64,000 nt of DNA from Escherichia coli 042 (lineage in GTDB: Bacteria > Pseudomonadota > Gammaproteobacteria > Enterobacterales > Enterobacteriaceae). The first letter of the stretch is position 1; each line of letters starts with the position of its first letter. The stretch is from NCBI RefSeq assembly GCF_000027125.1, contig NC_017626.1, one strand, 5' to 3'. The position numbers and the translations under genes were made by a program. This document shows, piece by piece, positions 5,937 to 21,317 of the stretch. The notes beneath the pieces are model-generated. The model did not search any database. It was not told the DNA's origin and saw nothing but the letters and a program-made list of their open reading frames with translations.

Positions 5937-6467
5937 GAATCATTGACTCGCTGTAAAAAATTATGCATATATTATATATGATTGTCATGTCATATCCTGC
6001 AATTCCTCTTGTATCACTTCATGATTTTATATTTTATTAATTAACGATTTTATTTTGTATTAGCTGAATGGATTCAGTCCTATAGAGTTATATATTTATT
6101 AATAAGACGATTCTTATATTTTGATACCTAATAAGAGTTACCACTTTTACCGGCTGTATATTAAATGTATTTCTCTTGCTTTTGTTTATATTTTGAGTTG
6201 ATTTGAGTTCCTGGATACATATAATGCGCAGGTATTAGAGACTGGGGGGGAATGTAATGATAAAGTTAAGAGTGTTAACTTAAAATAAGTTTTCAGTAGT
6301 AACTTGCTATTTTATTACCCTCTGAACTACATACTCAGATATGTGGTTGCCAATGCTATGCAAAATTTTTGAATTTTTATATGCGATGAACAGTAACCGG
6401 AATGGCATTTAATGCGTTGCTGTTTATGCAATCTTGGTTTTATTTGGATGTATTGCTGGAGATTGTG

Positions 6468-9400
6468 ATGAATAAAATATATCGGCTAAAGTGGAACAGG
6501 TCCCGTAACTGTTGGAGCGTCTGCTCGGAGCTGGGGAGTAGAGTAAAAGGAAAAAAGTCCCGGGCTGTTTTAATTAGCGCGATAAGTTTATATTCATCTC
6601 TGGCACTGTCTAAAGATGTCGCTGTAAGTGAAGATTACACAGCTGTATTCGGTAAAGATAACCAGACTATTGATTACCGTATTTCAGTGACCGACAATGC
6701 CAATCTGGTAATCGATGCGACAGATTCTTCTCGTCCACGTCTGACTCTCGCGTCTGGTGGTGGGCTGGATATCACTGGAGGGAAGGTGCATATCAATGGC
6801 TCGCTTAACTTTTTGTTAAAAGGGACGGGGTTTCTGAACGTCGCCAATGCTGGCAGCGAGTTATATGCTGATGATTTATATGAGTCTTACTCTAATATTA
6901 CCCACGATAGAGGCTATTTTAATGTCTCCAACGGCGGCAAAATCCATGTTAAGGGCACCAGCCGTCTGACCTATTTGCAGGGAAATGTCAGCGGTGAAGG
7001 CAGCCAGGTAAATTCTAAAACCTTCTTTATGGGCGTTTACGGCAGTTACGGTGGCAATCAGTATCTGTCAGTTAATAACGGCGGTGAAGTTAATGCCAGT
7101 GAAAAAATTAGCCTAGGCTATTATGATCAAGTCTCCGATACAACACTTGCTGTTTCGGAAGGTGGTAAAATTTATGCGCCGACTATTAGTTTAAGCACCA
7201 ACTCTGAGTTAGCGTTAGGGGCACAGGAAGGAAGTGCTGCGAAGGCAGCAGGGATTATTGATGCCGAAAAAATTGAGTTTGTGTGGGCAAAGACATCCGA
7301 TAAGAAAATCACCTTAAATCACACGGATAAAAACGCGACTATTTCCGCGGATATTGTCAGTGGCAGCGAGGGCCTGGGCTATATCAATGCGCTCAATGGC
7401 ACGACTTACTTAACCGGGGATAACTCCGCCTTTAGCGGTAAAGTCAAAATTGAGCAAAATGGCGCTTTAGGGATCACCCAAAATATAGGTACAGCAGAAA
7501 TCACCAACCGCGGGAAATTACACCTGAAGGCTGACGATAGCATGACCTTTGCCAATAAGATTTCTGGCAACGGTACAATAAGTATCGACAGTGGGACAGT
7601 GACGCTGACTGGCAATAACTATGCATTCAGCGGATATATTGATGTCGCTTCTGGTGCTGTCGCGGTTATTTCTGAAGACAAGAACATCGGCCGTGCAGAA
7701 CTGGATGTTGATGGCAAATTGCAAATTAATGCCAACAAAGATTGGGTATTTGATAACGATCTTGAAGGTAGAGGCATTGTTGAAATAAACATGGGGAATC
7801 ACGAATTCTCCTTCGATGAGTTTGCCTATACAGACTGGTTCCAGGGTTCACTGGCGTTCCAGAACACGACATTTAACCTGGAAAAGAATGCTGAGTTTCT
7901 GCAGAGAGGCGGGATCACTGCGGGTCAGGGAAGCCAGGTAACAGTGGGTAAGGGCGCTCACTCCATTAGCACTTTGGGATTCTCCGGCGGAACGGTTGAT
8001 TTTGGTGCCCTGGCAGCTGGTGCACAGATGACAGAAGGGACAGTCAACGTTAGTAAAACGCTGGATTTGCGTGGCGAGGGTGTGATTCAGGTTTCTGACA
8101 GTGACGTTGTCCGCTCTGTATCTCGTGATATTGACTCTGCGTTATCGCTCACTGAAGTCGATGATGGTAACAGCACCATTAAGTTGGTTGATGCGCAAGG
8201 TGCGGAAGTTCTGGGCGATGCGGGCAATCTGCAATTGCAGGATAAAAATGGACAAATCTTCTCCAGCAGCGCCCAACGTGATATTCAGCAGAATGGGCAA
8301 AAAGCGGCCGTCGGCACTTACGACTATCGTCTGACGAGTGGGGTAAACAATGACGGTCTGTATATCGGTTACGGCCTGACCCAGCTTGAATTGCAGGCTA
8401 CCGACAGTGATGCCCTGGTGCTGAGTGCCAACGGTAAAAGCGAGAATGCCGCCGATCTTAGTGCAAAGATTACCGGCAGTGGTGACCTGGCCTTCAGCAG
8501 CCAGAAAGGTCAGACCGTATCGCTTTCTAACAAAGACAACGACTATACCGGTATTACCGATCTGCGCAGCGGGACGCTTTTGTTGAATAACGATAACGTG
8601 TTGGGTAATACCCATGAACTGCGTCTGGCGGCAGAGACTGAACTGGATATGAATGGTCACAGCCAGATCGTGGGCACGCTCAATGGCAGCGCCGATTCAC
8701 TGCTGAGCTTGAACGGCGGGAGTCTGACGGTTACCAACGGGGGCACTTCAACCGGTTCGTTAACGGGGAGCGGAGAGCTGAATATTCAGGGCGGCACGCT
8801 GGACATCGCGGGCGATAACAGCAACCTGACGGCGAATGTGAACATTGCTAATTCGGCTAATGTCCTGGTAAGTCATGCGCAGGGATTGGGTAGCGCAAAC
8901 GTTGAGAACAACGGTACCCTGGCGTTGAATAATAGCGCTGAAAAAAGAGCGGCTGCGTCTGTGAATTACACCCTGGGCGGCAATCTGACCAACAACGGTA
9001 CGCTGATGACCGGAATGTCAGGACAGCAAGCTGGCAATATGTTAGTGGTGAAGGGGAACTACCACGGTAATAACGGTCAACTAGTAATGAATACGGTACT
9101 GAATGGCGATGACTCAGTAACCGATAAATTGGTTGTCGAGGGCGATACTAGCGGCACGACTGCCGTTACGGTGAATAACGCTGGCGGTACAGGTGCGAAA
9201 ACCCTTAACGGTATCGAACTTATCCATGTTGACGGTAAGTCTGAGGGCGAATTCGTTCAGGCTGGGCGTATCGTTGCGGGGGCATATGACTACACTCTCG
9301 CGCGTGGACAAGGGGCAAATAGTGGTAACTGGTATCTGACCAGCGGCAGTGATTCTCCTGAACTGCAGCCGGAGCCAGACCCGATGCCGAATCCGGAGCC

Positions 9401-10451
9401 AAACCCGAATCCAGAGCCGAACCCTAACCCGACACCTACGCCGGGTCCGGATCTGAATGTGGATAATGACCTGCGACCGGAGGCGGGTAGCTACATTGCG
9501 AACCTTGCAGCAGCGAATACCATGTTCACCACGCGTCTGCATGAGCGTCTGGGTAATACGTACTATACCGACATGGTGACGGGTGAGCAGAAACAAACCA
9601 CTATGTGGATGCGCCATGAAGGTGGTCATAATAAATGGCGTGATGGCAGCGGCCAGCTGAAAACCCAAAGCAATCGCTATGTTCTGCAACTGGGAGGCGA
9701 TATCGCGCAGTGGAGCCAAAACGGCAGCGACAGCTGGCATGTTGGGGTCATGGCGGGATATGGCAACAGCGACAGCAAAACCATTTCCTCGCGAACTGGT
9801 TATCGTGCTAAAGCGAGTGTGAACGGATATAGCACAGGCCTCTATGCCACCTGGTATGCCGATGACGAGTCGCGTAATGGCGCGTATCTCGACAGTTGGG
9901 CGCAGTACAGCTGGTTTGATAACACAGTGAAAGGTGATGATTTACAAAGTGAATCCTATAAATCAAAAGGATTTACCGCTTCACTGGAAGCTGGATACAA
10001 ACACAAATTAGCTGAATTTAATGGCAGCCAGGGAACGCGTAATGAATGGTATGTTCAGCCGCAAGCACAGGTTACCTGGATGGGAGTCAAAGCCGATAAG
10101 CACCGCGAAAACAATGGAACCCTCGTTCATAGCAACGGTGATGGCAATGTTCAAACCCGACTTGGCGTAAAAACCTGGCTGAAGAGCCACCATAAAATGG
10201 ATGACGGTAAATCCCGCGAGTTCCAGCCGTTTGTAGAAGTGAACTGGCTGCATAACAGTAAGGATTTCAGCACCAGTATGGATGGCGTGTCCGTCACTCA
10301 GGATGGAGCCCGAAATATTGCTGAGATAAAAACCGGGGTGGAAGGACAGCTAAATGCCAACCTGAATGTCTGGGGGAATGTGGGCGTTCAGGTTGCCGAT
10401 AGGGGATATAATGACACCTCTGCAATGGTTGGCATTAAGTGGCAATTCTGA
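6468..10451 (+). CDS. ehaA: AIDA-I-type (type Va) autotransporter adhesin, 1327 aa, EhaA-like
   Basis: ORF 6402..10451; start set at ATG 6468 (MNKIYRLKWNRSRNCWSVCSELG... extended autotransporter signal peptide) with GGAGA 6 nt upstream; repetitive Gly/Thr/Asn-rich passenger; Pro-rich PEPDPMPNPEPNPNPEPNPNPTPTPGP linker; C-terminal beta-barrel ending ...GIKWQF. Gene symbol is from memory of the EHEC autotransporter at this locus and is uncertain. Confidence 0.8.
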   Translation: MNKIYRLKWNRSRNCWSVCSELGSRVKGKKSRAVLISAISLYSSLALSKDVAVSEDYTAVFGKDNQTIDYRISVTDNANLVIDATDSSRPRLTLASGGGLDITGGKVHINGSLNFLLKGTGFLNVANAGSELYADDLYESYSNITHDRGYFNVSNGGKIHVKGTSRLTYLQGNVSGEGSQVNSKTFFMGVYGSYGGNQYLSVNNGGEVNASEKISLGYYDQVSDTTLAVSEGGKIYAPTISLSTNSELALGAQEGSAAKAAGIIDAEKIEFVWAKTSDKKITLNHTDKNATISADIVSGSEGLGYINALNGTTYLTGDNSAFSGKVKIEQNGALGITQNIGTAEITNRGKLHLKADDSMTFANKISGNGTISIDSGTVTLTGNNYAFSGYIDVASGAVAVISEDKNIGRAELDVDGKLQINANKDWVFDNDLEGRGIVEINMGNHEFSFDEFAYTDWFQGSLAFQNTTFNLEKNAEFLQRGGITAGQGSQVTVGKGAHSISTLGFSGGTVDFGALAAGAQMTEGTVNVSKTLDLRGEGVIQVSDSDVVRSVSRDIDSALSLTEVDDGNSTIKLVDAQGAEVLGDAGNLQLQDKNGQIFSSSAQRDIQQNGQKAAVGTYDYRLTSGVNNDGLYIGYGLTQLELQATDSDALVLSANGKSENAADLSAKITGSGDLAFSSQKGQTVSLSNKDNDYTGITDLRSGTLLLNNDNVLGNTHELRLAAETELDMNGHSQIVGTLNGSADSLLSLNGGSLTVTNGGTSTGSLTGSGELNIQGGTLDIAGDNSNLTANVNIANSANVLVSHAQGLGSANVENNGTLALNNSAEKRAAASVNYTLGGNLTNNGTLMTGMSGQQAGNMLVVKGNYHGNNGQLVMNTVLNGDDSVTDKLVVEGDTSGTTAVTVNNAGGTGAKTLNGIELIHVDGKSEGEFVQAGRIVAGAYDYTLARGQGANSGNWYLTSGSDSPELQPEPDPMPNPEPNPNPEPNPNPTPTPGPDLNVDNDLRPEAGSYIANLAAANTMFTTRLHERLGNTYYTDMVTGEQKQTTMWMRHEGGHNKWRDGSGQLKTQSNRYVLQLGGDIAQWSQNGSDSWHVGVMAGYGNSDSKTISSRTGYRAKASVNGYSTGLYATWYADDESRNGAYLDSWAQYSWFDNTVKGDDLQSESYKSKGFTASLEAGYKHKLAEFNGSQGTRNEWYVQPQAQVTWMGVKADKHRENNGTLVHSNGDGNVQTRLGVKTWLKSHHKMDDGKSREFQPFVEVNWLHNSKDFSTSMDGVSVTQDGARNIAEIKTGVEGQLNANLNVWGNVGVQVADRGYNDTSAMVGIKWQF

Positions 10452-10515: not shown

Positions 10516-10592
10516 CTTGCAGCCAGCTTTATCAGTCAGAGTGAAGACTCGCAGATTTAGCTGGCGCACAAGATTTAATCAAGGTGTGTTCA

Positions 10593-11681
10593 ATGGCTTC
10601 GCATGATTTGAGTGTTTTTTTGGAAGAGTTCGGGGCAACGGTGAATTTGACGTTGCCTGGTATCGTGTCCGAAAAAGAACGGCTTTTACTCAAGCTGCTA
10701 ATGGAGGGAATGTCGGTTACAGAAATCTCACAGTACAGAAATCGCAGTGCAAAGACAATTTCACATCAAAAGAAGCAGCTGTATGAAAAACTAGGCATCC
10801 AGAGTGATATTACCTTCTGGCGGGATATCTTTTTTCAATATCATCCGCAAGTCATCAGTGGCACGGGAAATAAAAATAATTTTTATATTCCTGATAACCG
10901 TTGTCACCATATCGTCACGCCTGAAGCCATCAGTCTGGCGTTGGAAAACCATGAATTTAAACCGTGGATCCAACCGGTTTTCTGCGCGCAGACTGGGGTA
11001 CTGACGGGCTGTGAGGTGCTTGTCCGCTGGGAACATCCACAAACGGGAATTATCCCACCGGATCAGTTTATTCCTCTGGCGGAGTCATCTGGTCTTATCG
11101 TCATAATGACTCGCCAGTTGATGAAACAGACTGCGGATATTCTGATGCCGGTAAAACATTTGCTGCCGGACAATTTCCATATTGGCATCAACGTCTCGGC
11201 GGGTTGTTTTTTGGCTGCGGGATTTGAAAAAGAGTGTCTGAACCTGGTTAAGAAATTAGGTAACGATAAAATCAAACTGGTTCTCGAGCTAACGGAACGT
11301 AACCCTATTCCGGTAACGCCAGAAGCCAGAGCGATATTTGACAGCCTTCATCAGCACAACATTACCTTTGCGCTGGATGATTTTGGTACGGGTTATGCGA
11401 CCTATCGTTATTTGCAGGCGTTTCCGGTCGATTTTATTAAGATCGATAAGTCGTTTGTGCAAATGGCGAGTGTCGACGAAATTTCCGGTCATATTGTGGA
11501 CAATATTGTCGAACTGGCGCGTAAGCCTGGTCTGAGTATCGTGGCGGAAGGGGTAGAAACCCAGGAGCAGGCGGATTTAATGATCGGCAAAGGCGTTCAC
11601 TTTTTACAGGGCTATTTGTACTCCCCGCCAGTTCCGGGTAATAAATTTATCTCTGAATGGGTAATGAAAGCAGGTGGTTGA
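10593..11681 (+). CDS. pdeL: c-di-GMP phosphodiesterase with LuxR-type HTH and EAL domain
   Basis: ORF 10584..11681; first ATG at 10593 gives 362 aa; LuxR-type HTH followed by an EAL domain. Confidence 0.88.
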   Translation: MASHDLSVFLEEFGATVNLTLPGIVSEKERLLLKLLMEGMSVTEISQYRNRSAKTISHQKKQLYEKLGIQSDITFWRDIFFQYHPQVISGTGNKNNFYIPDNRCHHIVTPEAISLALENHEFKPWIQPVFCAQTGVLTGCEVLVRWEHPQTGIIPPDQFIPLAESSGLIVIMTRQLMKQTADILMPVKHLLPDNFHIGINVSAGCFLAAGFEKECLNLVKKLGNDKIKLVLELTERNPIPVTPEARAIFDSLHQHNITFALDDFGTGYATYRYLQAFPVDFIKIDKSFVQMASVDEISGHIVDNIVELARKPGLSIVAEGVETQEQADLMIGKGVHFLQGYLYSPPVPGNKFISEWVMKAGG

Positions 11682-11722: not shown

Positions 11723-12655
11723 TTAATTCTCCCGATGCAGTAAATCCTGATAGATCCCCGTTAATATGCCATTTGGCGCAAATTGTTTTTTAATCCACTG
11801 CGTCACCTGACCCGTAGCAGAATGCTGAGTCGCCAGTAACATGCGCGAATCCTGGCGCGGATTATGGATTTGTCGGGTAACCAGCAGGGATTGCGTCATC
11901 GCCTCACGGACCATGTAATCCGGCAAAAACCCAATTCCTTCACCTAAAATCTGGCACTGACATTTGGTGTTGAAATCTGGCACCAGAATCGACTCCTGCC
12001 CATGCAGCAACCAGCCCACTTTTTTATTAATCGTATGCGCGGTGTCCTCCACCATGATATTAGGATAGAGACGCAGTTGGCTTTCGGCGATCGGCTCCGG
12101 CACAAAGGCTAATGGGTGATCCGGGGCGATAGCAAAAGCCCAGCGAATTGCGCCAATCTCCGTGTAATCAATGCCGCCGCCGTCCAGCAGTGTGTCGGGC
12201 GCGCCGATAGCAATATTCGCCTGATTATTAATAATCGCATCCCAGACGCCGTTATACACTTCGGTCGTCACGGTAATCTGGCAGGTTGGAAACTGCTTTT
12301 TCAGTACCTGTAATAAGCGTGCGGTGTGTTTGGGCGTATAAAGCAGTTGGTTAATACAAATGCGCACCCGTGCTTCTATACCCTGCGAAATAGTATCGAT
12401 GCTGCGTTTGATGGCGTGAAAATCATTCAGCAGGTCGGTAGCTTTGCGGAAAAAATAACGCCCGGACTCCGTTAACTCAATGCTTCGGGTACTGCGAGTG
12501 AACAGCACCACATCCAGCCCTGTTTCCATTCGCTTGATGGTGTAGCTAATGGCGGAAGTGGTTAAACCCAACTCTTCTGCGGCTTTACTGAAACTGCCAA
12601 AACGCGCAGCGGTAGTAAATGCCAACAGATTCTCTTCGGTAAAAATTGAGTTCAT
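11723..12655 (-). CDS. yahB: LysR-family transcriptional regulator
   Basis: 310-aa ORF; N-terminal HTH (FSKAAEELGLTTSAISYTIKRME) and LysR substrate-binding domain. Confidence 0.88.
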   Translation of the reverse strand: MNSIFTEENLLAFTTAARFGSFSKAAEELGLTTSAISYTIKRMETGLDVVLFTRSTRSIELTESGRYFFRKATDLLNDFHAIKRSIDTISQGIEARVRICINQLLYTPKHTARLLQVLKKQFPTCQITVTTEVYNGVWDAIINNQANIAIGAPDTLLDGGGIDYTEIGAIRWAFAIAPDHPLAFVPEPIAESQLRLYPNIMVEDTAHTINKKVGWLLHGQESILVPDFNTKCQCQILGEGIGFLPDYMVREAMTQSLLVTRQIHNPRQDSRMLLATQHSATGQVTQWIKKQFAPNGILTGIYQDLLHREN

Positions 12656-12746
12656 TAAACCATTCCCGCCATTATCGAATATGAATTTCTCCAGCCATGA
12701 CTGTAGAGGTATCGGTTAAAGATAGATAATCATTTTTGAATAACTT

Positions 12747-13244
12747 TTAATACCCGTCGCGTTTAGTCGTCGCTTCGCTTAATTTTTGTCCGCCATATTC
12801 TGAAATTATCCCCACGCAGTTACCCGCCAGAAAACCCAGTAATGTCACTGTCCAGTTCATCCCGCTGGCAAAAAATAGCGTCATGCCGAGAAAGCCTCCG
12901 GGAATAAAAGACAATAAACCGAAACGTCCTTGCCAGACCACCACCGCCGAGAAGGGTACAGTCATAATCACGCTCGCCCAGAACGTGGACAATCCACTCA
13001 CCGAGGCCAGCCAGCCGGCAGCCAGCGCGGCGAAAAACGCCCACACCATCCCGGAATAATTAACCGCCAGACTTCTGATAAACCCCGATTTACCGCCGCC
13101 TGCGGCATAAAAACTGCAAAAGGCGACGAAGCCAATGGTTCCTAATAATTCCCATCCCTGAGAGAGCCCGACATGTGAAGACACTAACTGCCAAAGCCCT
13201 GCACAAATACCGACGGTGACACCCGTTGCCGTGAGTCCGTTCAT
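12747..13244 (-). CDS. yahC: small hydrophobic inner-membrane protein
   Basis: 165-aa ORF, strongly hydrophobic (multiple predicted TM helices). Confidence 0.8.
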   Translation of the reverse strand: MNGLTATGVTVGICAGLWQLVSSHVGLSQGWELLGTIGFVAFCSFYAAGGGKSGFIRSLAVNYSGMVWAFFAALAAGWLASVSGLSTFWASVIMTVPFSAVVVWQGRFGLLSFIPGGFLGMTLFFASGMNWTVTLLGFLAGNCVGIISEYGGQKLSEATTKRDGY

Positions 13245-13501
13245 CTTGTTCCCCTCTGGTTAGACATGGACGAAAGCTACTCTTACATGTGCAGACTATA
13301 GAGAAATAAAACCTGATTGAGTGAAAGGGTATCGGGTCAAAGAAACAAATATTGCACTACCGCACACTGCGAAAAGATTGTTGAACATCATTCAACAAAA
13401 AGGCGAAATACGGCGAATTAAATTTAAGCGGGTTCTTTTATCAGATTATCGTTGCTATTCTCAATTCATCGAAAACAGCCACAAAAACCAGGGGAATGTG
13501 A

Positions 13502-14107
13502 ATGACTATAAAAAATCTACCTGCCGACTATTTATTGGCTGCGCAACAGGGTGATATCGATAAAGTAAAAACCTGCCTTGCGCTGGGTGTCGATATTAAT
13601 ACCTGCGATCGTCAGGGGAAAACGGCAATTACGCTGGCAAGTTTATATCAGCAATATGCTTGCGTTCAGGCATTAATTGATGCCGGAGCGGATATTAATA
13701 AGCAAGATCAAATATGTTCAAATCCTTTTTTAATTAGCTGCCTGACCGGCGATTTAACCCTGTTACGGATTATTTTATCGGCTAAACCCGATCTTAATTG
13801 CGTCACCCGTTTTGGCGGTGTCGGCCTGACGCCTGCCTGTGAAAAAGGCCATTTAAGTATTGTAAAAGAGCTTTTGGCGCATACGGAGATTAACGTTAAC
13901 CAGACCAACCATGTTGGCTGGACGCCGCTACTGGAAGCAATTGTGCTTAATGATGGCGGGATTAAACAGCAGGCGATTGTCCAGTTATTGCTGGAACACG
14001 GTGCCAGCCCGCACATGACGGATAAATATGGCAAAACGCCGCTGGAACTGGCGCGGGAACGAGGCTTTGAAGAGATTGCGCAGTTACTGATTGCCGCAGG
14101 TGCATAA
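13502..14107 (+). CDS. yahD: ankyrin-repeat protein
   Basis: 201-aa ORF with repeated ankyrin-like motifs (GKTAITLAS..., GLTPACEKGHLSIVKELL, GWTPLLEAI, GKTPLELARERGFEEIAQLL). Confidence 0.85.
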   Translation: MTIKNLPADYLLAAQQGDIDKVKTCLALGVDINTCDRQGKTAITLASLYQQYACVQALIDAGADINKQDQICSNPFLISCLTGDLTLLRIILSAKPDLNCVTRFGGVGLTPACEKGHLSIVKELLAHTEINVNQTNHVGWTPLLEAIVLNDGGIKQQAIVQLLLEHGASPHMTDKYGKTPLELARERGFEEIAQLLIAAGA

Positions 14108-14146
14108 ACCGGGAGGCTTGCTATCAACACACCAGAAAGACGGTGT

Positions 14147-15010
14147 GTGTGGGCGCTAACTGCGGATGCTGATTTTCTGGCGCAGCGGGGGCAAGGACAG
14201 GTTGAACAGGTCTTTGCCAGAGCGGTAAATATCGCACTTCCGGCCCGCCAGCAGTTGCTGACGCTGCTTTGTGAAGAGTACGACAATGCGCCAAACAGTT
14301 GTCGGTTGGCACTCACTCACTTTGATGATCTGTTCCGGCATGGTGATAAGGTTCAGTTTGACGATCAAGGCATTACGGTTGGTCAACATCTTCATATAGA
14401 GATGAGTCGTTGTCGGCGTTGGCTGTCCCCAACCTTGCAAATGACCGCTGTGAATTTTCACCTTATCGCCTGGCAACAGTGGCATGACATTATTCATCAG
14501 CACCTGGGGGAAAATGAAACCCTGTTTAATTATCGCGGCGATAATCCGTTTTATCAGGCGTTAAATAAAGAATTACATATTAAACGACAGGCAGTTATTC
14601 AGGCAGTAAACGATAAACAAAATATCGCCTCAGCGGTCGTCAGTATGATGGGCTTAGGGATTGGCCTTACGCCATCAGCCGACGATTATTTAACAGGTCT
14701 GGCGCTTATTTTATTTATTTCCGGACATCCGTCGGAAAAATACAAAGAGGAATTTTATCTCGGTCTGCAACGCGGCAGAAATAATACCACGTTATTAAGT
14801 GCCATAACGCTGGAAGCCGCATTACAACAACGCTGCCGGGAAAATATTCATCGTTTTATTCATAACATTATTTATGACATCCCTGGGAACGCAACTCAGG
14901 CAATAGAAAAAATTAAACATATTGGCTCCAGTTCCGGCTGCGACATGCTGTATGGCATGGCCGATGGTTGTGCGCTGAGCCAAACCTACGGAGGGAATTA
15001 TGTCAGTTAA
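14147..15010 (+). CDS. yahE: DUF2877-family protein (YlbF-like)
   Basis: 287-aa ORF with GTG start; overlaps yahF start by 11 bp. Confidence 0.8.
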   Translation: MWALTADADFLAQRGQGQVEQVFARAVNIALPARQQLLTLLCEEYDNAPNSCRLALTHFDDLFRHGDKVQFDDQGITVGQHLHIEMSRCRRWLSPTLQMTAVNFHLIAWQQWHDIIHQHLGENETLFNYRGDNPFYQALNKELHIKRQAVIQAVNDKQNIASAVVSMMGLGIGLTPSADDYLTGLALILFISGHPSEKYKEEFYLGLQRGRNNTTLLSAITLEAALQQRCRENIHRFIHNIIYDIPGNATQAIEKIKHIGSSSGCDMLYGMADGCALSQTYGGNYVS

Positions 15011-16547
15011 AATAGTCATTAAACCGAATACCTATTTTGATTCTGTCTCGCTGATGTCTATCTCCACGCGTGCAAATAAACTCGACGGCGTCGAGCAGGC
15101 ATTTGTGGCGATGGCGACCGAAATGAACAAAGGCGTACTGAAGAATTTAGGGCTGCTGACGCCGGAGCTGGAGCAGGCGAAAAACGGCGACCTGATGATT
15201 GTCATTAACGGCAAAGCGGGCGCAGACAACGAGCAGTTGCTGGTGGAGATTGAAGAACTGTTCAACACCAAAGCGCAAAGCGGCTCGCACGAGGCGCGTT
15301 ACGCCACTATTGCCAGCGCCAAAAAGCATATCCCGGAAAGTAACCTGGCGGTGATTTCGGTCAACGGTCTGTTTGCTGCTCGCGAAGCGCGTCAGGCACT
15401 GCAAAACGATCTTAACGTGATGCTGTTTTCCGATAACGTCTCAGTTGAAGATGAACTGGCGCTCAAACAACTGGCCCACGAAAAAGGGCTGCTGATGATG
15501 GGGCCAGACTGCGGCACGGCGATTATCAACGGCGCGGCGCTCTGCTTTGGTAACGCCGTGCGTCGCGGCAACATCGGTATTGTTGGCGCATCTGGCACCG
15601 GCAGCCAGGAGCTGAGCGTCCGTATCCATGAATTTGGCGGCGGCGTTTCGCAACTGATTGGCACCGGCGGGCGCGACCTGAGCGAGAAAATCGGCGGCCT
15701 GATGATGCTCGACGCCATCGGGATGCTGGAAAACGATCCGCAAACTGAAATCATTGTGCTTATCTCCAAACCGCCTGCGCCTGCGGTGGCCCGCAAAGTG
15801 CTGGAACGCGCACGTGCCTGCCGCAAGCCGGTGGTGGTCTGCTTCCTCGGTCGTGGCGAAACGCCAGTGGATGAGCAGGGGCTACAGTTTGCCCGCGGCA
15901 GTAAAGAGGCGGCATTGAAAGCGGTGATGCTCTCCGGCGTGAAACAGGAACATCTCGAGCTGCATACGCTGAACCAGTCGTTGATTGCTGACGTGCGCGC
16001 TCGCCTGCAACCGCAGCAGAAATACATTCGTGGCCTGTTCTGCGGCGGTACGCTGTGTGACGAAACCATGTTCGCGGTGATGGAAAAACATGGCGATGTC
16101 TACAGCAATATTCAGCCCGATCCTGAATTCCGCCTGCAAGATATCAACCGCAGCATCAAACACACCTTCCTCGACTTTGGCGATGACGACTTCACCAACG
16201 GCAAGCCGCATCCAATGATTGACCCGACCAACCGTATCAGCCGCTTGATCGAAGAGGCGCGCGATCCAGAAGTGGCGGTGATCGTGATGGATTTTGTGCT
16301 CGGATTTGGATCGCATGAAGATCCGGTCGGTTCCACCATCGAGGCGATCAAAGAGGCGAAAGCGATCGCCGCTGCCGAAGGACGTGAGTTGATCATTCTC
16401 GCCTATGTGCTGGGTACCGATCTTGATACGCCATCATTAGAACAACAAAGCCAGATGCTGCTTGATGCCGGAGTGATTCTGGCAAGCAGCAGCACCAATA
16501 CCGGATTGCTGGCGCGTGAATTTATCTGCAAAGGGGAGGAAGCCTGA
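15000..16547 (+). CDS. yahF: FdrA-like protein with CoA-binding / succinyl-CoA-synthetase-like fold
   Basis: 515-aa ORF, GGAGGG RBS, Gly-rich nucleotide-binding motifs (GIVGASGTGSQE). Confidence 0.85.
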   Translation: MSVKIVIKPNTYFDSVSLMSISTRANKLDGVEQAFVAMATEMNKGVLKNLGLLTPELEQAKNGDLMIVINGKAGADNEQLLVEIEELFNTKAQSGSHEARYATIASAKKHIPESNLAVISVNGLFAAREARQALQNDLNVMLFSDNVSVEDELALKQLAHEKGLLMMGPDCGTAIINGAALCFGNAVRRGNIGIVGASGTGSQELSVRIHEFGGGVSQLIGTGGRDLSEKIGGLMMLDAIGMLENDPQTEIIVLISKPPAPAVARKVLERARACRKPVVVCFLGRGETPVDEQGLQFARGSKEAALKAVMLSGVKQEHLELHTLNQSLIADVRARLQPQQKYIRGLFCGGTLCDETMFAVMEKHGDVYSNIQPDPEFRLQDINRSIKHTFLDFGDDDFTNGKPHPMIDPTNRISRLIEEARDPEVAVIVMDFVLGFGSHEDPVGSTIEAIKEAKAIAAAEGRELIILAYVLGTDLDTPSLEQQSQMLLDAGVILASSSTNTGLLAREFICKGEEA

Positions 16548-17965
16548 TGAGCCAGTCACTGTTTAGCCAACCGTTGAACGTTATTAACGTCGGCATCGCC
16601 ATGTTTAGCGATGATCTGAAAAAGCAGCATGTAGAAGTGACCCAACTCGACTGGACGCCGCCGGGGCAGGGCAATATGCAGGTGGTGCAGGCGCTGGACA
16701 ACATTGCCGATTCCCCGCTGGCGGACAAAATCGCCTCCGCGAATCAGCAGGCGCTGGAGCGCATTATTCAGTCACATCCGGTGCTGATTGGTTTTGATCA
16801 GGCGATTAACGTGGTGCCGGGCATGACGCCGAAAACCATTCTTCACGCCGGGCCGCCGATCACCTGGGAAAAAATGTGCGGTGCGATGAAAGGCGCGGTC
16901 ACCGGGGCGCTGGTGTTCGAAGGGCTGGCGAAAGATCTCGACGAGGCGGCTGAACTGGCGGCCTCCGGGGAGATCTCCTTCTCGCCGTGCCACGAACATG
17001 ACTGCGTGGGATCGATGGCTGGTGTTACCTCGGCCTCGATGTTTATGCACATCGTAAAAAACAAAACCTACGGCAACATCGCTTACACCAATATGAGCGA
17101 GCAGATGGCGAAGATTTTGCGTATGGGCGCTAACGACCAGAGCGTGATTGACCGCCTCAACTGGATGCGCGATGTGCAGGGGCCCATGCTGCGCGACGCG
17201 ATGAAAATTATCGGCGAGATCGATCTGCGCTTGATGCTGGCGCAGGCGCTGCATATGGGCGATGAATGCCATAACCGCAATAACGCCGGGACTACGCTGC
17301 TGATTCAGGCGCTGACGCCGGGGATTATTCAGGCGGGCTATTCCGTCGAGCAACAGCGCGAAGTGTTTGAGTTTGTCGCCAGCAGCGACTACTTCTCCGG
17401 CCCGACGTGGATGGCGATGTGTAAAGCGGCGATGGATGCGGCGCACGGCATCGAATACAGCACCGTGGTGACCACGATGGCGCGTAACGGCGTCGAGTTC
17501 GGCCTGCGGGTCAGCGGATTACCGGGGCAGTGGTTTACCGGTCCGGCGCAGCAGGTGATCGGCCCGATGTTTGCCGGTTATAAGCCGGAAGATTCTGGAT
17601 TGGATATTGGCGACAGTGCCATCACCGAAACCTACGGTATTGGCGGATTTGCTATGGCGACCGCGCCTGCAATCGTCGCGCTGGTGGGCGGTACGGTGGA
17701 AGAGGCTATCGATTTCTCCCGTCAGATGCGCGAAATCACTCTCGGCGAAAACCCCAACGTCACCATTCCGCTGCTCGGTTTTATGGGCGTGCCGTCGGCA
17801 ATCGACATCACCCGCGTGGGCAGTAGCGGCATTCTGCCAGTGATCAACACCGCCATCGCTCATAAAGATGCGGGCATCGGCATGATTGGCGCGGGCATTG
17901 TGCATCCACCATTCGCCTGCTTCGAAAAAGCCATTCTTGGCTGGTGCGAACGTTACGGCGTCTGA
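16547..17965 (+). CDS. yahG: DUF1116-family protein (YlbE-like)
   Basis: 472-aa ORF; start overlaps yahF stop (TGATGA). Confidence 0.82.
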   Translation: MSQSLFSQPLNVINVGIAMFSDDLKKQHVEVTQLDWTPPGQGNMQVVQALDNIADSPLADKIASANQQALERIIQSHPVLIGFDQAINVVPGMTPKTILHAGPPITWEKMCGAMKGAVTGALVFEGLAKDLDEAAELAASGEISFSPCHEHDCVGSMAGVTSASMFMHIVKNKTYGNIAYTNMSEQMAKILRMGANDQSVIDRLNWMRDVQGPMLRDAMKIIGEIDLRLMLAQALHMGDECHNRNNAGTTLLIQALTPGIIQAGYSVEQQREVFEFVASSDYFSGPTWMAMCKAAMDAAHGIEYSTVVTTMARNGVEFGLRVSGLPGQWFTGPAQQVIGPMFAGYKPEDSGLDIGDSAITETYGIGGFAMATAPAIVALVGGTVEEAIDFSRQMREITLGENPNVTIPLLGFMGVPSAIDITRVGSSGILPVINTAIAHKDAGIGMIGAGIVHPPFACFEKAILGWCERYGV

Positions 17966-17988
17966 CCTGCAAAGTGCGCGTTGTCTCT

Positions 17989-18161
17989 GCCGGATGCGGC
18001 GTGAACGCCTTATCCGGCCTACGAGTGGCGCGAGAATCTGTAGGCCTGATAAGCGTAGCGCATCAGGCATTTGTCACCATTGCCGGATGCGGCGTGAACG
18101 CCTTATCCGGCCTACGAATGGCACGAGAATTCTAGGCCTGATAAGCGTAGCGCATCAGGCA
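17989..18161. repeat. BIME: four alternating REP palindromes
   Basis: gccggatgcggcgtgaacgccttatccggcctacg and gtaggcctgataagcgtagcgcatcaggca units, each present twice. Confidence 0.9.
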
Positions 18162-18210
18162 GTCTGGCGTTGGTCATAACCCCATCACCCTCTGTAGCGG
18201 ACATAACAAC

Positions 18211-19161
18211 ATGAAAGAACTTGTGGTCGTTGCCATTGGTGGCAACAGCATTATCAAAGATAACGCCAGCCAGTCGATTGAGCATCAGGCGGAGGCGGTG
18301 AAAGCCGTGGCCGATACGGTGCTGGAAATGCTGGCTTCCGATTACGACATTGTGCTGACCCACGGCAACGGGCCGCAGGTCGGGCTGGATTTACGCCGTG
18401 CGGAGATTGCCCACGAGCGTGAAGGGCTGCCCTTAATGCCGCTGGCGAACTGTGTGGCAGATACGCAAGGCGGCATTGGCTACTTGATCCAGCAGGCGCT
18501 GAACAACCGACTGGCGCGTCACAGCGAGAAAAAAGCCGTCACCGTGGTGACTCAGGTGGAAGTGGATATAAACGATCCGGGTTTTGCTCATCCCACCAAG
18601 CCCATCGGCGCATTCTTCAGTGAAAGCCAGCGTGACGAATTACAAAAGGCAAACCCTGACTGGCGTTTTGTTGAAGATGCCGGACGGGGCTATCGCCGCG
18701 TGGTCGCCTCGCCGGAACCGAAACGTATTGTCGAGGCACCTGCCATTAAGGCGCTGATCCAACAAGGCTTTGTCGTAATTGGTGCGGGCGGCGGTGGAAT
18801 TCCGGTAGTGCGTACTGACGCGGGGGATTACCAAAGCGTGGACGCGGTTATCGACAAAGATCTCTCTACCGCGCTGCTGGCCCGTGAAATTCACGCCGAC
18901 ATTCTGGTGATCACCACCGGCGTCGAAAAAGTCTGTATTCACTTTGGCAAGCCGCAGCAGCAGGCGCTGGATCGGGTGGATATTGCCACCATGACCCGCT
19001 ATATGCAGGAAGGGCATTTCCCGCCTGGCAGCATGTTGCCAAAAATCATCGCCAGCCTGGCGTTCCTGGAACAGGGCGGCAAAGAAGTGATTATCACCAC
19101 GCCGGAATGCCTGCCTGCGGCGCTGCGTGGTGAAACGGGCACCCACATTATTAAAACGTAA
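18211..19161 (+). CDS. yahI: carbamate kinase-like protein
   Basis: 316-aa ORF, amino-acid kinase fold (MKELVVVAIGGNSI...). Confidence 0.85.
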   Translation: MKELVVVAIGGNSIIKDNASQSIEHQAEAVKAVADTVLEMLASDYDIVLTHGNGPQVGLDLRRAEIAHEREGLPLMPLANCVADTQGGIGYLIQQALNNRLARHSEKKAVTVVTQVEVDINDPGFAHPTKPIGAFFSESQRDELQKANPDWRFVEDAGRGYRRVVASPEPKRIVEAPAIKALIQQGFVVIGAGGGGIPVVRTDAGDYQSVDAVIDKDLSTALLAREIHADILVITTGVEKVCIHFGKPQQQALDRVDIATMTRYMQEGHFPPGSMLPKIIASLAFLEQGGKEVIITTPECLPAALRGETGTHIIKT

Positions 19162-19170
19162 GGACGTAAG

Positions 19171-20550
19171 ATGAAAGAAAACAATAGCCGCCGTGAATTT
19201 CTGAGCCAGAGCGGTAAGATGGTCACCGCCGCCGCGCTGTTTGGTACCTCTGTGCCGCTCGCCCATGCGGCAGTCTCTGGCACAACCCACTGCGACGCGA
19301 ATAACACCATGAAAATCACTGACCCGCACTACTATCTCGACAACGTGCTGCTGGAAACCGGTTTTGACTACGAAAATGGCGTGGCGGTACAGACCCGCAT
19401 GGCGCGCCAGACCGTGGAGATTCAGGACGGTAAAATTGTTGCCCTGCGCGAGAACAAGCAGCATCCGGACGCCACGCTGCCGCACTATGACGCTGGCGGT
19501 AAGCTGATGCTGCCCACCACCCGCGACATGCATATTCATCTCGACAAAACCTTCTACGGCGGGCCGTGGCGCTCGCTCAATCGTCCGGCAGGCACCACTA
19601 TCCAGGACATGATCAAACTCGAGCAGAAAATGCTGCCGGAACTGCAACCGTACACTCAGGAACGAGCGGAAAAACTGATCGATTTATTGCAGTCGAAAGG
19701 CACCACCATTGCCCGCAGCCACTGCAATATCGAACCGGTTTCCGGCCTGAAAAATCTGCAAAATTTGCAGGCGGTGCTGGCGCGACGTCAGGCGGGCTTC
19801 GAGTGTGAAATTGTCGCCTTCCCGCAGCACGGTTTGCTGCTGTCGAAATCGGAACCCTTAATGCGCGAAGCGATGCAGGCAGGGGCGCATTACGTCGGCG
19901 GGCTGGACCCAACCAGTGTTGATGGCGCGATGGAAAAATCCCTCGACACCATGTTCCAGATTGCGCTGGACTACGACAAAGGCGTCGATATTCACCTACA
20001 CGAAACCACTCCGGCAGGCGTGGCAGCCATCAATTATATGGTTGAAACGGTAGAGAAAACGCCACAGCTGAAGGGCAAGCTGACCATCAGCCACGCCTTT
20101 GCGCTGGCAACGCTCAATGAGCAACAGGTAGATGAACTGGCGCACCGGATGGCGGCGCAGCAAATTTCTATCGCCTCGACGGTGCCGATTGGCACGTTGC
20201 ATATGCCGCTCAAACAACTGCACGACAAAGGCGTAAAAGTTATGACCGGCACCGACAGCGTTATCGACCACTGGTCGCCTTACGGCCTGGGCGACATGCT
20301 GGAAAAAGCCAATCTGTACGCGCAGCTCTATATTCGTCCTAACGAACAGAACCTCTCCCGCTCGCTGTTTTTAGCCACTGGCGATGTATTGCCGCTCAAC
20401 GAAAAAGGCGAGCGCGTGTGGCCCAAAGCGCAGGATGACGCCAGTTTTGTGCTGGTGGACGCCTCCTGTTCCGCCGAGGCGGTGGCGCGTATCTCGCCGA
20501 GAACGGCAACGTTCCATAAAGGACAACTGGTGTGGGGGAGTGTGGTGTAA
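19171..20550 (+). CDS. yahJ: Tat-exported amidohydrolase / deaminase (CodA-like metal-dependent hydrolase)
   Basis: 459-aa ORF; N-terminal SRREFLSQ twin-arginine motif followed by a hydrophobic stretch; HIHLD metal-binding motif. Confidence 0.85.
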   Translation: MKENNSRREFLSQSGKMVTAAALFGTSVPLAHAAVSGTTHCDANNTMKITDPHYYLDNVLLETGFDYENGVAVQTRMARQTVEIQDGKIVALRENKQHPDATLPHYDAGGKLMLPTTRDMHIHLDKTFYGGPWRSLNRPAGTTIQDMIKLEQKMLPELQPYTQERAEKLIDLLQSKGTTIARSHCNIEPVSGLKNLQNLQAVLARRQAGFECEIVAFPQHGLLLSKSEPLMREAMQAGAHYVGGLDPTSVDGAMEKSLDTMFQIALDYDKGVDIHLHETTPAGVAAINYMVETVEKTPQLKGKLTISHAFALATLNEQQVDELAHRMAAQQISIASTVPIGTLHMPLKQLHDKGVKVMTGTDSVIDHWSPYGLGDMLEKANLYAQLYIRPNEQNLSRSLFLATGDVLPLNEKGERVWPKAQDDASFVLVDASCSAEAVARISPRTATFHKGQLVWGSVV

Positions 20551-20669
20551 CGTTATCAGCGAGGATATCCGGGCAGGCACTATTCCGATTTTAAAACCCG
20601 ATATCCTCTGCGTTTTGCCCATGACGTACACTGCGGATTATCTTTTTTATCCAGGGATGGATAGACGCC

Positions 20670-21317
20670 GTGAAATTTCTTTGGTTATCGCTGTTGTTTC
20701 TGAGTCAGGCCGTCCTGGCAACTTGCCCTGCTGGAAATTCACAACACGAATGCGAGGCGGTGCGCATACAGCCCCTGGTCACGCCGGAGCAGAAAAAAGA
20801 TGCCTTAACGCAATTGCAAAAGTTTCAGCAAGCGCTGAGTGCAAAGAATGCCACGAAACTAAAAACCTTCTTAAAATTCCCCTACGATACCTATTTCGGC
20901 TTTCTCGCTGAGATTGAGTTGCCTGAATCTGAACCCTTCACAGAAGCACTATTTGATCGCCATTCAGAAACCATTATGCGGCGTCTGCATAATGTCACAA
21001 AATTCACGATACATCCGGGTACCCAATGGATTGATGATTATCTCAGTCATTCGCTGACGCCAGCGGAGCAAAAAAGAAAATATTATCCCCTCAATGATGG
21101 ACGTTTCTATTACGAAGAGAAAGGGGAGCGCCACTACGTCACGGGAATATGTGAACTGGCGATGTCGGGGAATATTTCTGACGATGGCATTACGCTGAAT
21201 ATTGGTTCGCAGGCTAATGAACAAATTCCACCGGCTGTTTGTGATGGCACAACTATACTGGAATTTGGCATGATTAACGGGCAGTTAAAGTTATTGCGTG
21301 TTTCTTTTGCGGGGTAA
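20670..21317 (+). CDS. hypothetical exported protein or lipoprotein, 215 aa
   Basis: GTG-initiated ORF, no upstream ATG in frame; N-terminus MKFLWLSLLFLSQAVLATC is a typical signal peptide (possible lipobox LATC); four Cys in the mature part; I do not recall an annotated K-12 gene between yahJ and yahK. Confidence 0.5.
   Translation: MKFLWLSLLFLSQAVLATCPAGNSQHECEAVRIQPLVTPEQKKDALTQLQKFQQALSAKNATKLKTFLKFPYDTYFGFLAEIELPESEPFTEALFDRHSETIMRRLHNVTKFTIHPGTQWIDDYLSHSLTPAEQKRKYYPLNDGRFYYEEKGERHYVTGICELAMSGNISDDGITLNIGSQANEQIPPAVCDGTTILEFGMINGQLKLLRVSFAG

Follow-up and report, generated by a model that had tools for sequence, protein, structure and literature searches.

We propose that YahD, an ankyrin-repeat protein encoded in a 64,000-nucleotide (nt) stretch of Escherichia coli 042 (contig NC_017626.1; the whole stretch is called the window below), probably serves the Yah module, the set of proteins encoded with it, as a dedicated protein-binding component, as judged from comparative sequence analysis. 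Beyond this general role, binding to a YahF-YahG core through repeats 4 to 6, as an accessory subunit, is a possibility that we put a little short of an even chance. On the model that we infer, as regards protein binding by the conserved face and the choice of YahF/YahG as partner no less than the direction of the effect and the pathway chemistry, yahD would open the yah catabolic block as its first cistron, read from a conserved promoter that probably depends on the LysR-type regulator YahB. YahE, YahF, and YahG would presumably split an N-carbamoyl compound by phosphorolysis, the resulting carbamoyl phosphate being used by YahI to make ATP, and the concave groove of YahD repeats 4 to 6 would bind a conserved protein of the module, most likely the YahF-YahG core and less likely YahE, with YahD assembling, stabilizing, or gating the enzyme in the role of a dedicated accessory subunit. 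The ankyrin nature of YahD, on which the preliminary description of this region had built, is correct but already public annotation: RefSeq carries the label “yahD: ankyrin repeat domain-containing protein,” with yahC and yahE on its flanks.

The constancy of the gene and of its place is the broadest line of evidence. One genome per species was scanned with a YahG/AllG alignment, and the 80 loci considered here are, among the matches listed, those whose YahG orthologue is at least 86% identical (86 to 99% over all 80); they come from more than 20 Enterobacterales genera plus Zophobihabitans and Aeromonas cavernicola, and 287 further YahG/AllG relatives lie beyond them. A complete yahD is present at 77 loci, while 2 others come without upstream DNA and 1 has a shortened copy only. 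In all 77, from Escherichia to Providencia and Aeromonas, yahD stands immediately 5′ of the enzyme genes, and it is the first gene of the plus-strand block in the window as at these loci, in accord with its earlier placement at the head of the operon. The protein is 201 amino acids (aa) long in 75 of the 77. The outer flanks vary by genus and, therefore, the cassette, yahD included, moves as one unit. Within E. coli, a query of about 1.1 kb around yahD matches 5091 of 5426 complete genomes at 95 to 100% identity. Moreover, YahD is under strong, enzyme-like purifying selection: the median ratio of nonsynonymous to synonymous substitution rates (dN/dS) is 0.083 for YahD, against 0.031 for YahG, 0.056 for YahF, 0.058 for YahI, 0.069 for YahJ, and 0.223 for YahE.

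This selection is unevenly spread over the protein. Across 78 distinct sequences, 80 of the 201 columns are invariant, and conservation increases from repeat 1 to repeat 5. With the groove defined as positions 2, 3, 5, 13, 14, and 33 of the canonical 33-residue register, a map drawn from the randomized positions of designed ankyrin repeat proteins (DARPins), the groove positions have a mean top-residue frequency of 0.92, with 16 of 32 invariant; the hydrophobic core positions reach 0.89, and the convex face only 0.74, with 3 of 34 invariant (groove versus convex face, Mann-Whitney p=4e-5). The contrast is sharpest in repeats 4 to 6, where 13 of 17 groove residues are invariant (R103, F104, G106, E114, K115, T135, V138, W140, V148, L149, T173, K175, and Y176) and the remaining four lie at 0.91 to 0.96. 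The 5-residue insertion in repeat 5 is held almost as tightly, with N150, G152, and G153 invariant and D151 at 0.99, and I154 at 0.55. The register agrees with the six helix pairs of the AlphaFold2 model described below. Groove conservation of this kind is the signature that a dedicated, conserved protein partner would produce, though not proof of one.

As to which protein that partner might be, the divergence of YahD was compared with that of its neighbors in a mirror-tree analysis of 69 loci, in which the partial correlation controls for the other proteins. YahD distances follow those of YahF most closely (r 0.76, partial 0.76), with YahG second (r 0.59, partial 0.36), and the partial correlations are negative with YahB (-0.38), YahI, and YahJ (-0.38). 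This co-variation fits an association of YahD with YahF/G, seen from sequence divergence.

The fold itself is not in doubt. The preliminary description had YahD consisting almost entirely of ankyrin-like repeats, and this proved accurate in the predicted structure: the AlphaFold2 model, which rests on 78 orthologues, has a mean predicted local distance difference test score (pLDDT) of 92.1 and a predicted template modeling score (pTM) of 0.87, with six helix pairs spanning residues 3 to 198 as one stacked domain. Repeat detection with Pfam, proposed at the time as a check, gives scores well above the cut-off for every ankyrin model, by about 3- to 4-fold for the best (Ank_4, 96.4 bits, cut-off 22.7, E 7.7e-28; Ank_2, 94.3 bits, cut-off 27.3; Ank, 86.1 bits, cut-off 21.1; Ank_5, 64.7 bits, cut-off 27; Ank_3, 64 bits, cut-off 22.3). 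A sequence search of the PDB with YahD returns 439 ankyrin chains at E<=1e-3, and Foldseek aligns the model to solved ankyrin structures with template modeling (TM) scores of 0.8 to 0.91. The repeats run throughout the protein, with no catalytic domain. The best Foldseek match is 5D66 (ABAYE2397 of Acinetobacter baumannii; TM 0.91, root mean square deviation 1.7 Å, 42% identity), followed here by 3HRA (EF0377 of Enterococcus faecalis; TM 0.88, 37% identity); both are structural-genomics structures of about 200 aa with six repeats like YahD and align with it end to end, though at 37 to 42% identity orthology is not clear. 5D66 appears to share the repeat-5 insertion, since its alignment needs no 6-residue gap, unlike those of the designed ankyrins. 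With DARPins and eukaryotic ankyrins YahD has the fold and the repeat consensus in common (30 to 36% identity, TM 0.8 to 0.87), but it differs from them in its atypical repeats 3 to 5, with repeats 3 and 4 lacking TPLH, and in the 5-residue insertion in repeat 5. Two wider searches were set aside. HMMER with YahD against 1.84 billion representatives gave 239,735 matches in which giant multi-ankyrin proteins dominate, and distant orthologues were not separable; and a 428-aa protein with 43% identity (P0160), considered as a “Rosetta-stone” fusion, was rejected as a tandem double ankyrin in an unrelated neighborhood.

The setting in which this ankyrin protein sits has become readable through paralogy. 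E. coli allFGH (fdrA-ylbE-ylbF) was shown in 2024 to encode the long-sought oxamic transcarbamylase (PMC11326118), and the Pfam families matched by YahE and YahG have, following that demonstration, been named “oxamate carbamoyltransferase subunit AllH” and “AllG.” YahF scores 492 bits against the NCBIfam FdrA subfamily (cut-off 433), and the best NCBIfam match of YahB is AllS, which activates the allantoin regulon of E. coli, at 268 bits, below the 372-bit cut-off, with PunR matching also. By sequence, then, the yah block matches, paralogue for paralogue, the genes for the enzyme, the kinase, and the regulator in the allantoin regulon: AllF-, AllG-, and AllH-like genes stand together with a carbamate kinase gene, the AllH-like one being absent at 25 of the 77 loci. 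The differences are as instructive as the likeness. Gene order is F-G-H-K in all and D-H′-F′-G′-K′-J in yah, and the yah additions are the ankyrin protein YahD, the twin-arginine translocation (Tat)-type amidohydrolase YahJ, and a membrane protein (YahC in E. coli). A segment of about 50 aa (LNVINVGIAMFSDDL... / VAVINIGLRSFALEL...) forms the N-terminus of YahG in yah (window 16547-16717, YahG residues 1 to 57) and the C-terminus of AllF in all (L005:7180-7345); residues 8 to 52 of YahG match positions 509 to 553 of the FdrA model (E 1.5e-4), and therefore the subunit boundary has shifted between the paralogous systems. YahJ begins with a twin-arginine-type signal (SRREFL; MKENNSRREFLSQSGKMVTAAALFGTSVPLAHA; 19171-19270), kept in Citrobacter, Enterobacter, Providencia, and Aeromonas, from which export would follow, and which points to the periplasm as the probable site of the first pathway step. 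Because identity to AllFGH is only 25 to 46% and an amidohydrolase and a permease are added, the Yah substrate may differ from that of AllFGH. The yah genes are not mentioned in the allFGH paper (PMC11326118).

Several observations weigh against YahD as an accessory subunit of YahF-YahG. The K-12 all cluster (allE-allC-allD / fdrA-ylbE-ylbF-ybcF), unlike yah, has no ankyrin gene, and AllF, AllG, and AllH alone reconstitute activity (PMC11326118). Since the characterized system works without an ankyrin protein, such a subunit is not intrinsically needed, and YahD does not qualify as an established subunit of the AllFGH enzyme family. Similar ankyrin proteins, at 43% identity, occur in unrelated gene contexts. 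The groove positions were registered by hand on the DARPin consensus and not taken from the structure of a complex. The co-variation that sets YahD, YahF, and YahG apart from YahB, YahI, and YahJ could also have come from recombinational replacement of the central segment of the cassette. One global study of E. coli interactions lists YahD, in its supplements, only in functional-module and property tables, and no interaction pair with YahD was found there. Finally, an AlphaFold2 prediction of YahD joined to YahF by a (GGGGS)6 linker gave pTM 0.56 and mean pLDDT 76, with the YahD part no more confident. This run gives no support, because two undocked bodies would yield equal numbers, but it is not evidence against binding either, because the alignment was shallow (13 paired rows plus AllF), YahF was given as a monomer through a linker, and its N-terminal domain was poorly predicted; the run had no inter-residue error output, and YahF is probably dimeric (PMC11326118). 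A block-diagonal alignment of YahD, YahF, and YahG(1-57) was discarded after MAFFT had placed YahD rows onto YahF at 23 to 29% identity.

Two precedents bear on what such a subunit might do. In the katB-ankB operon of Pseudomonas aeruginosa, the small ankyrin protein AnkB, co-transcribed with the catalase KatB, was reportedly found by Howell and colleagues in 2000 to be needed for full activity of that enzyme, and among operon-encoded enzymes with an ankyrin accessory this is the nearest known precedent in function; AnkB is reported to be encoded downstream of its enzyme and to be membrane- or periplasm-associated, whereas YahD comes from the first cistron and lacks a signal sequence. Bd3460 of Bdellovibrio bacteriovorus, which is an operon-encoded ankyrin for self-protection and whose concave face reportedly (Lambert and colleagues, 2015) binds and blocks the endopeptidases encoded beside it, would be the precedent for an inhibitory or gating role, although it provides periplasmic immunity against peptidoglycan hydrolases and has no known link to carbamoyl metabolism. 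A stronger form of the proposal, that YahD is an obligatory subunit of a new form of carbamoyltransferase with a YahD-YahF-YahG core, an AllH-like subunit that is dispensable, as at the 25 loci that lack yahE, and an N-carbamoyl substrate, we regard as unlikely.

Within the module, an alternative partner is YahE, with YahD as its chaperone or as an adaptor that would carry the AllH-like subunit to YahF/G. The genes yahD and yahE lie side by side, and the Shine-Dalgarno sequence 3 nt and the probable ATC start about 15 nt past the yahD stop codon suggest translational coupling; AllH is reported to be necessary for AllFGH activity and sub-stoichiometric in the complex (PMC11326118), and the less conserved groove of repeats 1 to 3 could match a fast-evolving partner. 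Yet at the 25 loci without yahE (L036-L063, L065, and L080, in Enterobacter, Leclercia, Lelliottia, Silvania, Huaxiibacter, Serratia sp. DD3, and Aeromonas), yahD is followed directly by yahF, with a gap of about 105 to 109 nt in 23 of them, against 509 nt for Serratia sp. DD3 and 282 nt for Aeromonas, and there YahD shows no relaxation: its dN/dS stays at 0.06 to 0.09, the invariant groove is unchanged, and YahD distances stand to YahF distances in a ratio of 1.41, compared with 1.20 at loci that contain yahE. YahE is also the fastest-evolving protein of the block (35 to 95% identity, dN/dS 0.22), while the YahD groove stays conserved in repeats 4 to 6. Being fast-evolving, and lost at 25 loci without relaxation of YahD, YahE is the least likely partner, and a YahD-YahE pairing strikes us as improbable. 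Moreover, a single 817-aa open reading frame (ORF) of Zophobihabitans entericus (L064:7536-9989) encodes YahE fused to YahF, which ties YahE to YahF and not to YahD. The earlier suggestion of a scaffold or regulatory subunit for a YahEFG complex thus survives in part: as a role it is a reasonable hypothesis, which the linkage at 77 of 77 loci, the low dN/dS, and the conserved groove favor, and its YahE component is the portion that fares worst.

Other targets have their own attractions. Transcriptional feedback would make YahD an induced anti-activator or co-activator of YahB acting on the divergent promoter; yahB is divergent from yahD wherever the upstream DNA reaches far enough, the two are separated by a conserved control region rich in dyads, and eukaryotic ankyrin proteins can sequester transcription factors, as IkB does NF-kB. 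Against this stand the negative partial correlation with YahB and the general rule that a partner-switching regulator usually shares its transcript with the regulator that it controls and not with target enzymes; we know of no ankyrin protein that controls a LysR-type regulator, and we give the idea little credence. Service to yet another protein of the module, as proofreading chaperone of Tat-exported YahJ or as a permease tether, is to our minds very improbable, even though the SRREFL signal is fairly conserved, yahJ is found at all loci that reach far enough, and Tat substrates often have operon-encoded chaperones: the YahD-YahJ partial correlation is negative, yahD is the gene furthest from yahJ in the block, E. 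coli lacks the permease while its YahD is unchanged, and the known Tat chaperones (the TorD, DmsD, and NapD families) are, to our knowledge, not ankyrin proteins. A target outside the cluster, in cell division or, for a secreted effector, in a host, would render the operon position incidental. For this speaks a fragment of strain UTI89 (361,550-364,162, equivalent to window 13502-16547) with yahD, yahE, and part of yahF, which was enriched 17-fold among filamentous cells in an overexpression screen; the screen did not resolve the causal gene (PMC6206680). The ankyrin relatives in unrelated contexts point the same way, as does a weak similarity to type IV secretion (Dot/Icm) ankyrin effectors of Legionella and Coxiella, but the best of those effector models, AnkG, gives 74 bits against a cut-off of 500 and the others 20 to 57 bits against cut-offs of 550 to 1400, so that in sequence the likeness is one of generic repeats only. 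No signal peptide is visible in the YahD sequence, and the invariable linkage and the co-variation with YahF/G argue for a role inside the cluster; an outside target therefore seems to us a slim prospect. That yahD is a decaying or functionless hitch-hiker would at least accord with the lack of any yahD phenotype in the literature, but the dN/dS, the constant length, the 80 invariant columns, and the presence in nearly all of the E. coli genomes make the chance negligible, and the selection analysis effectively refutes it.

The placement of yahD as first cistron finds support in the DNA upstream. Aligning the 170 nt that precede yahD, over the range from E. coli to Aeromonas, brings out the boxes, the dyad, and the -10-like element listed in Table 1; the region, with two dyads in all, is conserved in every genus, and a GGAG/GGGG motif is kept at the Shine-Dalgarno position across genera. 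The dyad is a candidate recognition site for YahB, an assignment made by analogy, because LysR-regulated divergent promoters usually have such an architecture. A simple sigma-70 scan called no plus-strand promoter upstream of yahD; it missed the -10-like element because the -35 is weak. The overall pattern fits a LysR-type-activated promoter and would support yahD as the first cistron. Further downstream, no plus-strand terminator-like site was found in 12600-20800, which takes in yahD to yahJ; yahE and yahF overlap by 11 nt and yahF and yahG by 1 nt (ATGA), and repetitive extragenic palindromic (REP) elements stand between yahG and yahI, where REP23 sites fill the former yahH (PMC11551758). 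A yahDEFGIJ operon was proposed in a translatome study of enterohemorrhagic E. coli (PMC4765031).

Table 1. Positions of the yah genes, control elements, and YahD repeats in the window (repeats in YahD residues; identities from comparison with the K-12 all cluster)
Feature	Position	Strand	Remarks
pdeL/yahA	10584-11681		upstream of yahB in window order
yahB	11723..12655	-	LysR-type regulator; Pfam HTH_1 + LysR_substrate
yahC	12747..13244	-	DUF1097 inner-membrane protein; Pfam DUF1097, 93.8 bits
Box TGCAC-N4-GCACA	13353..13366	.	conserved from E. coli to Aeromonas; candidate regulator site
Dyad ATTGTTGAA-N5-TTCAACAAA	13377..13399	.	kept in nearly all genera
Box GAATTAAATTTAAGCGG	13415..13431	.	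near-invariant, 5′ of the -10-like element
Extended -10-like TGCTATTCT in nearly invariant GTTGCTATTCTCA	13453..13461	+	19 genera; candidate yahD promoter
Shine-Dalgarno-like AGGGG for yahD	13490..13494	+	7 nt 5′ of ATG
yahD	13502..14107	+	201-aa cytoplasmic ankyrin protein; ATG start
YahD repeat R1	residues 3-35		hand-assigned register
YahD repeat R2	residues 36-68		hand-assigned register
YahD repeat R3	residues 69-101		hand-assigned register
YahD repeat R4	residues 102-135		hand-assigned register
YahD repeat R5	residues 136-173		hand-assigned register; 5-aa insertion N150-I154
YahD repeat R6	residues 174-201		hand-assigned register
Shine-Dalgarno GGGAGG for yahE	14111..14116	+	strong; 3 nt past yahD stop codon
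yahE	14123..15010	+	AllH-family (DUF2877); Pfam AllH 99.2 bits; probable ATC start; 24.5% identity to AllH
yahF	15000..16547	+	AllF/FdrA-like subunit, succinyl-CoA-synthetase-alpha-like; Pfam CoA_binding + Ligase_CoA; 38.8% identity to AllF
yahG	16547..17965	+	AllG-family subunit; Pfam AllG 297 bits; 45.5% identity to AllG
REP-type repeats between yahG and yahI (former “yahH”)	17988..18161	.	two families, 50 nt + 29 nt
yahI	18211..19161	+	carbamate kinase, AllK/YbcF paralogue; NCBIfam carbamate kinase subfamily 641 bits; 38.3% identity to AllK/YbcF
yahJ	19171..20550	+	amidohydrolase, cytosine-deaminase-like superfamily; Pfam Amidohydro_3; NCBIfam PRK06846 713 bits

The junction between yahD and yahE merits separate comment. 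The annotated, mechanically called start of yahE is GTG at 14147, 39 nt past the end of yahD, but the true start is probably the non-canonical ATC at 14123, 8 codons 5′ of it and about 15 to 18 nt past the yahD stop codon, in the reading frame that yahD and yahE share. The codon at this position is kept as ATC or ATT (L009-L058), and the conserved peptide extends up to that codon; the position is ATG in Yokenella and GTG in Providencia, Atlantibacter, and Zophobihabitans, and several Citrobacter and Serratia loci offer no canonical in-frame start until 15 to 37 codons further downstream. The AGGAG core of the yahE Shine-Dalgarno sequence is conserved in 21 aligned loci. A candidate hairpin near the start, CACACC (14129-14134) with GGTGTG (14143-14148), was rejected: RNAalifold did not recover it, and in the alignment 68% of cells pair, with compensatory changes lacking. 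At the yahE-less loci L036-L063, a GC-rich stem-loop (e.g., GGCCAGCC-N6-GGCTGGCC) lies about 10 to 45 nt past the yahD stop codon and before yahF; it is not a canonical terminator, because no T-run follows the stem, and may be a deletion scar or an mRNA-stabilizing element.

Most genera have, between yahG and yahI, a multi-pass membrane protein of 515 to 530 aa (e.g., L025:11537-13087) that matched no Pfam or NCBIfam family and would, from its sequence, be an unclassified permease. The E. coli gap between yahG and yahI holds only REP-type repeats and no permease, and yahC sits between yahB and yahD instead, an arrangement confined to the Escherichia/Kluyvera/Raoultella group, with yahC absent from most other genera. 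The control region 13353-13461 is retained in E. coli despite this insertion. In Escherichia albertii NBRC 107761, yahF (L008:5616-7166) carries an in-frame stop and a 2-aa insertion and may be a pseudogene, and yahD is intact. Elsewhere in the window, upstream of pdeL/yahA, an ORF of 1349 aa at 6402-10451 is autotransporter-like in its translation, with passenger repeats, a PEPNPNPEPNP linker, and a C-terminal end resembling a beta-barrel.

In the literature searched, no paper characterizing YahD was found. A 2009 functional atlas placed yahD, E, F, G, H, and I in one functional module with fdrA, ylbF, ybcF, and others; FdrA, the paralogue of YahF, was, as cited in PMC11326118, originally reported to suppress ftsH mutants when in multicopy; and a 2024 review of the y-ome counts the yah region among the dense uncharacterized gene clusters left in E. 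coli K-12 (PMC11551758). The yah enzyme core has been interpretable only since the allFGH assignment of that same year, and what makes YahD matter, in our weighing, is that it is the sole yah component without a counterpart in the AllFGH system. It is, in short, a known gene with a plausible role. For the practical goal of reconstituting YahFG, co-expression of YahD is advisable, and YahE should not be assumed to be the key partner. If YahD is indeed a subunit or gatekeeper, it would explain the assembly or control of the paralogous enzyme, and it would be a rare case of an ankyrin protein inside bacterial core metabolism, as opposed to a host-targeted effector; were the obligatory-subunit reading true, YahD would be the first ankyrin-repeat protein shown to be integral to a bacterial catabolic enzyme.

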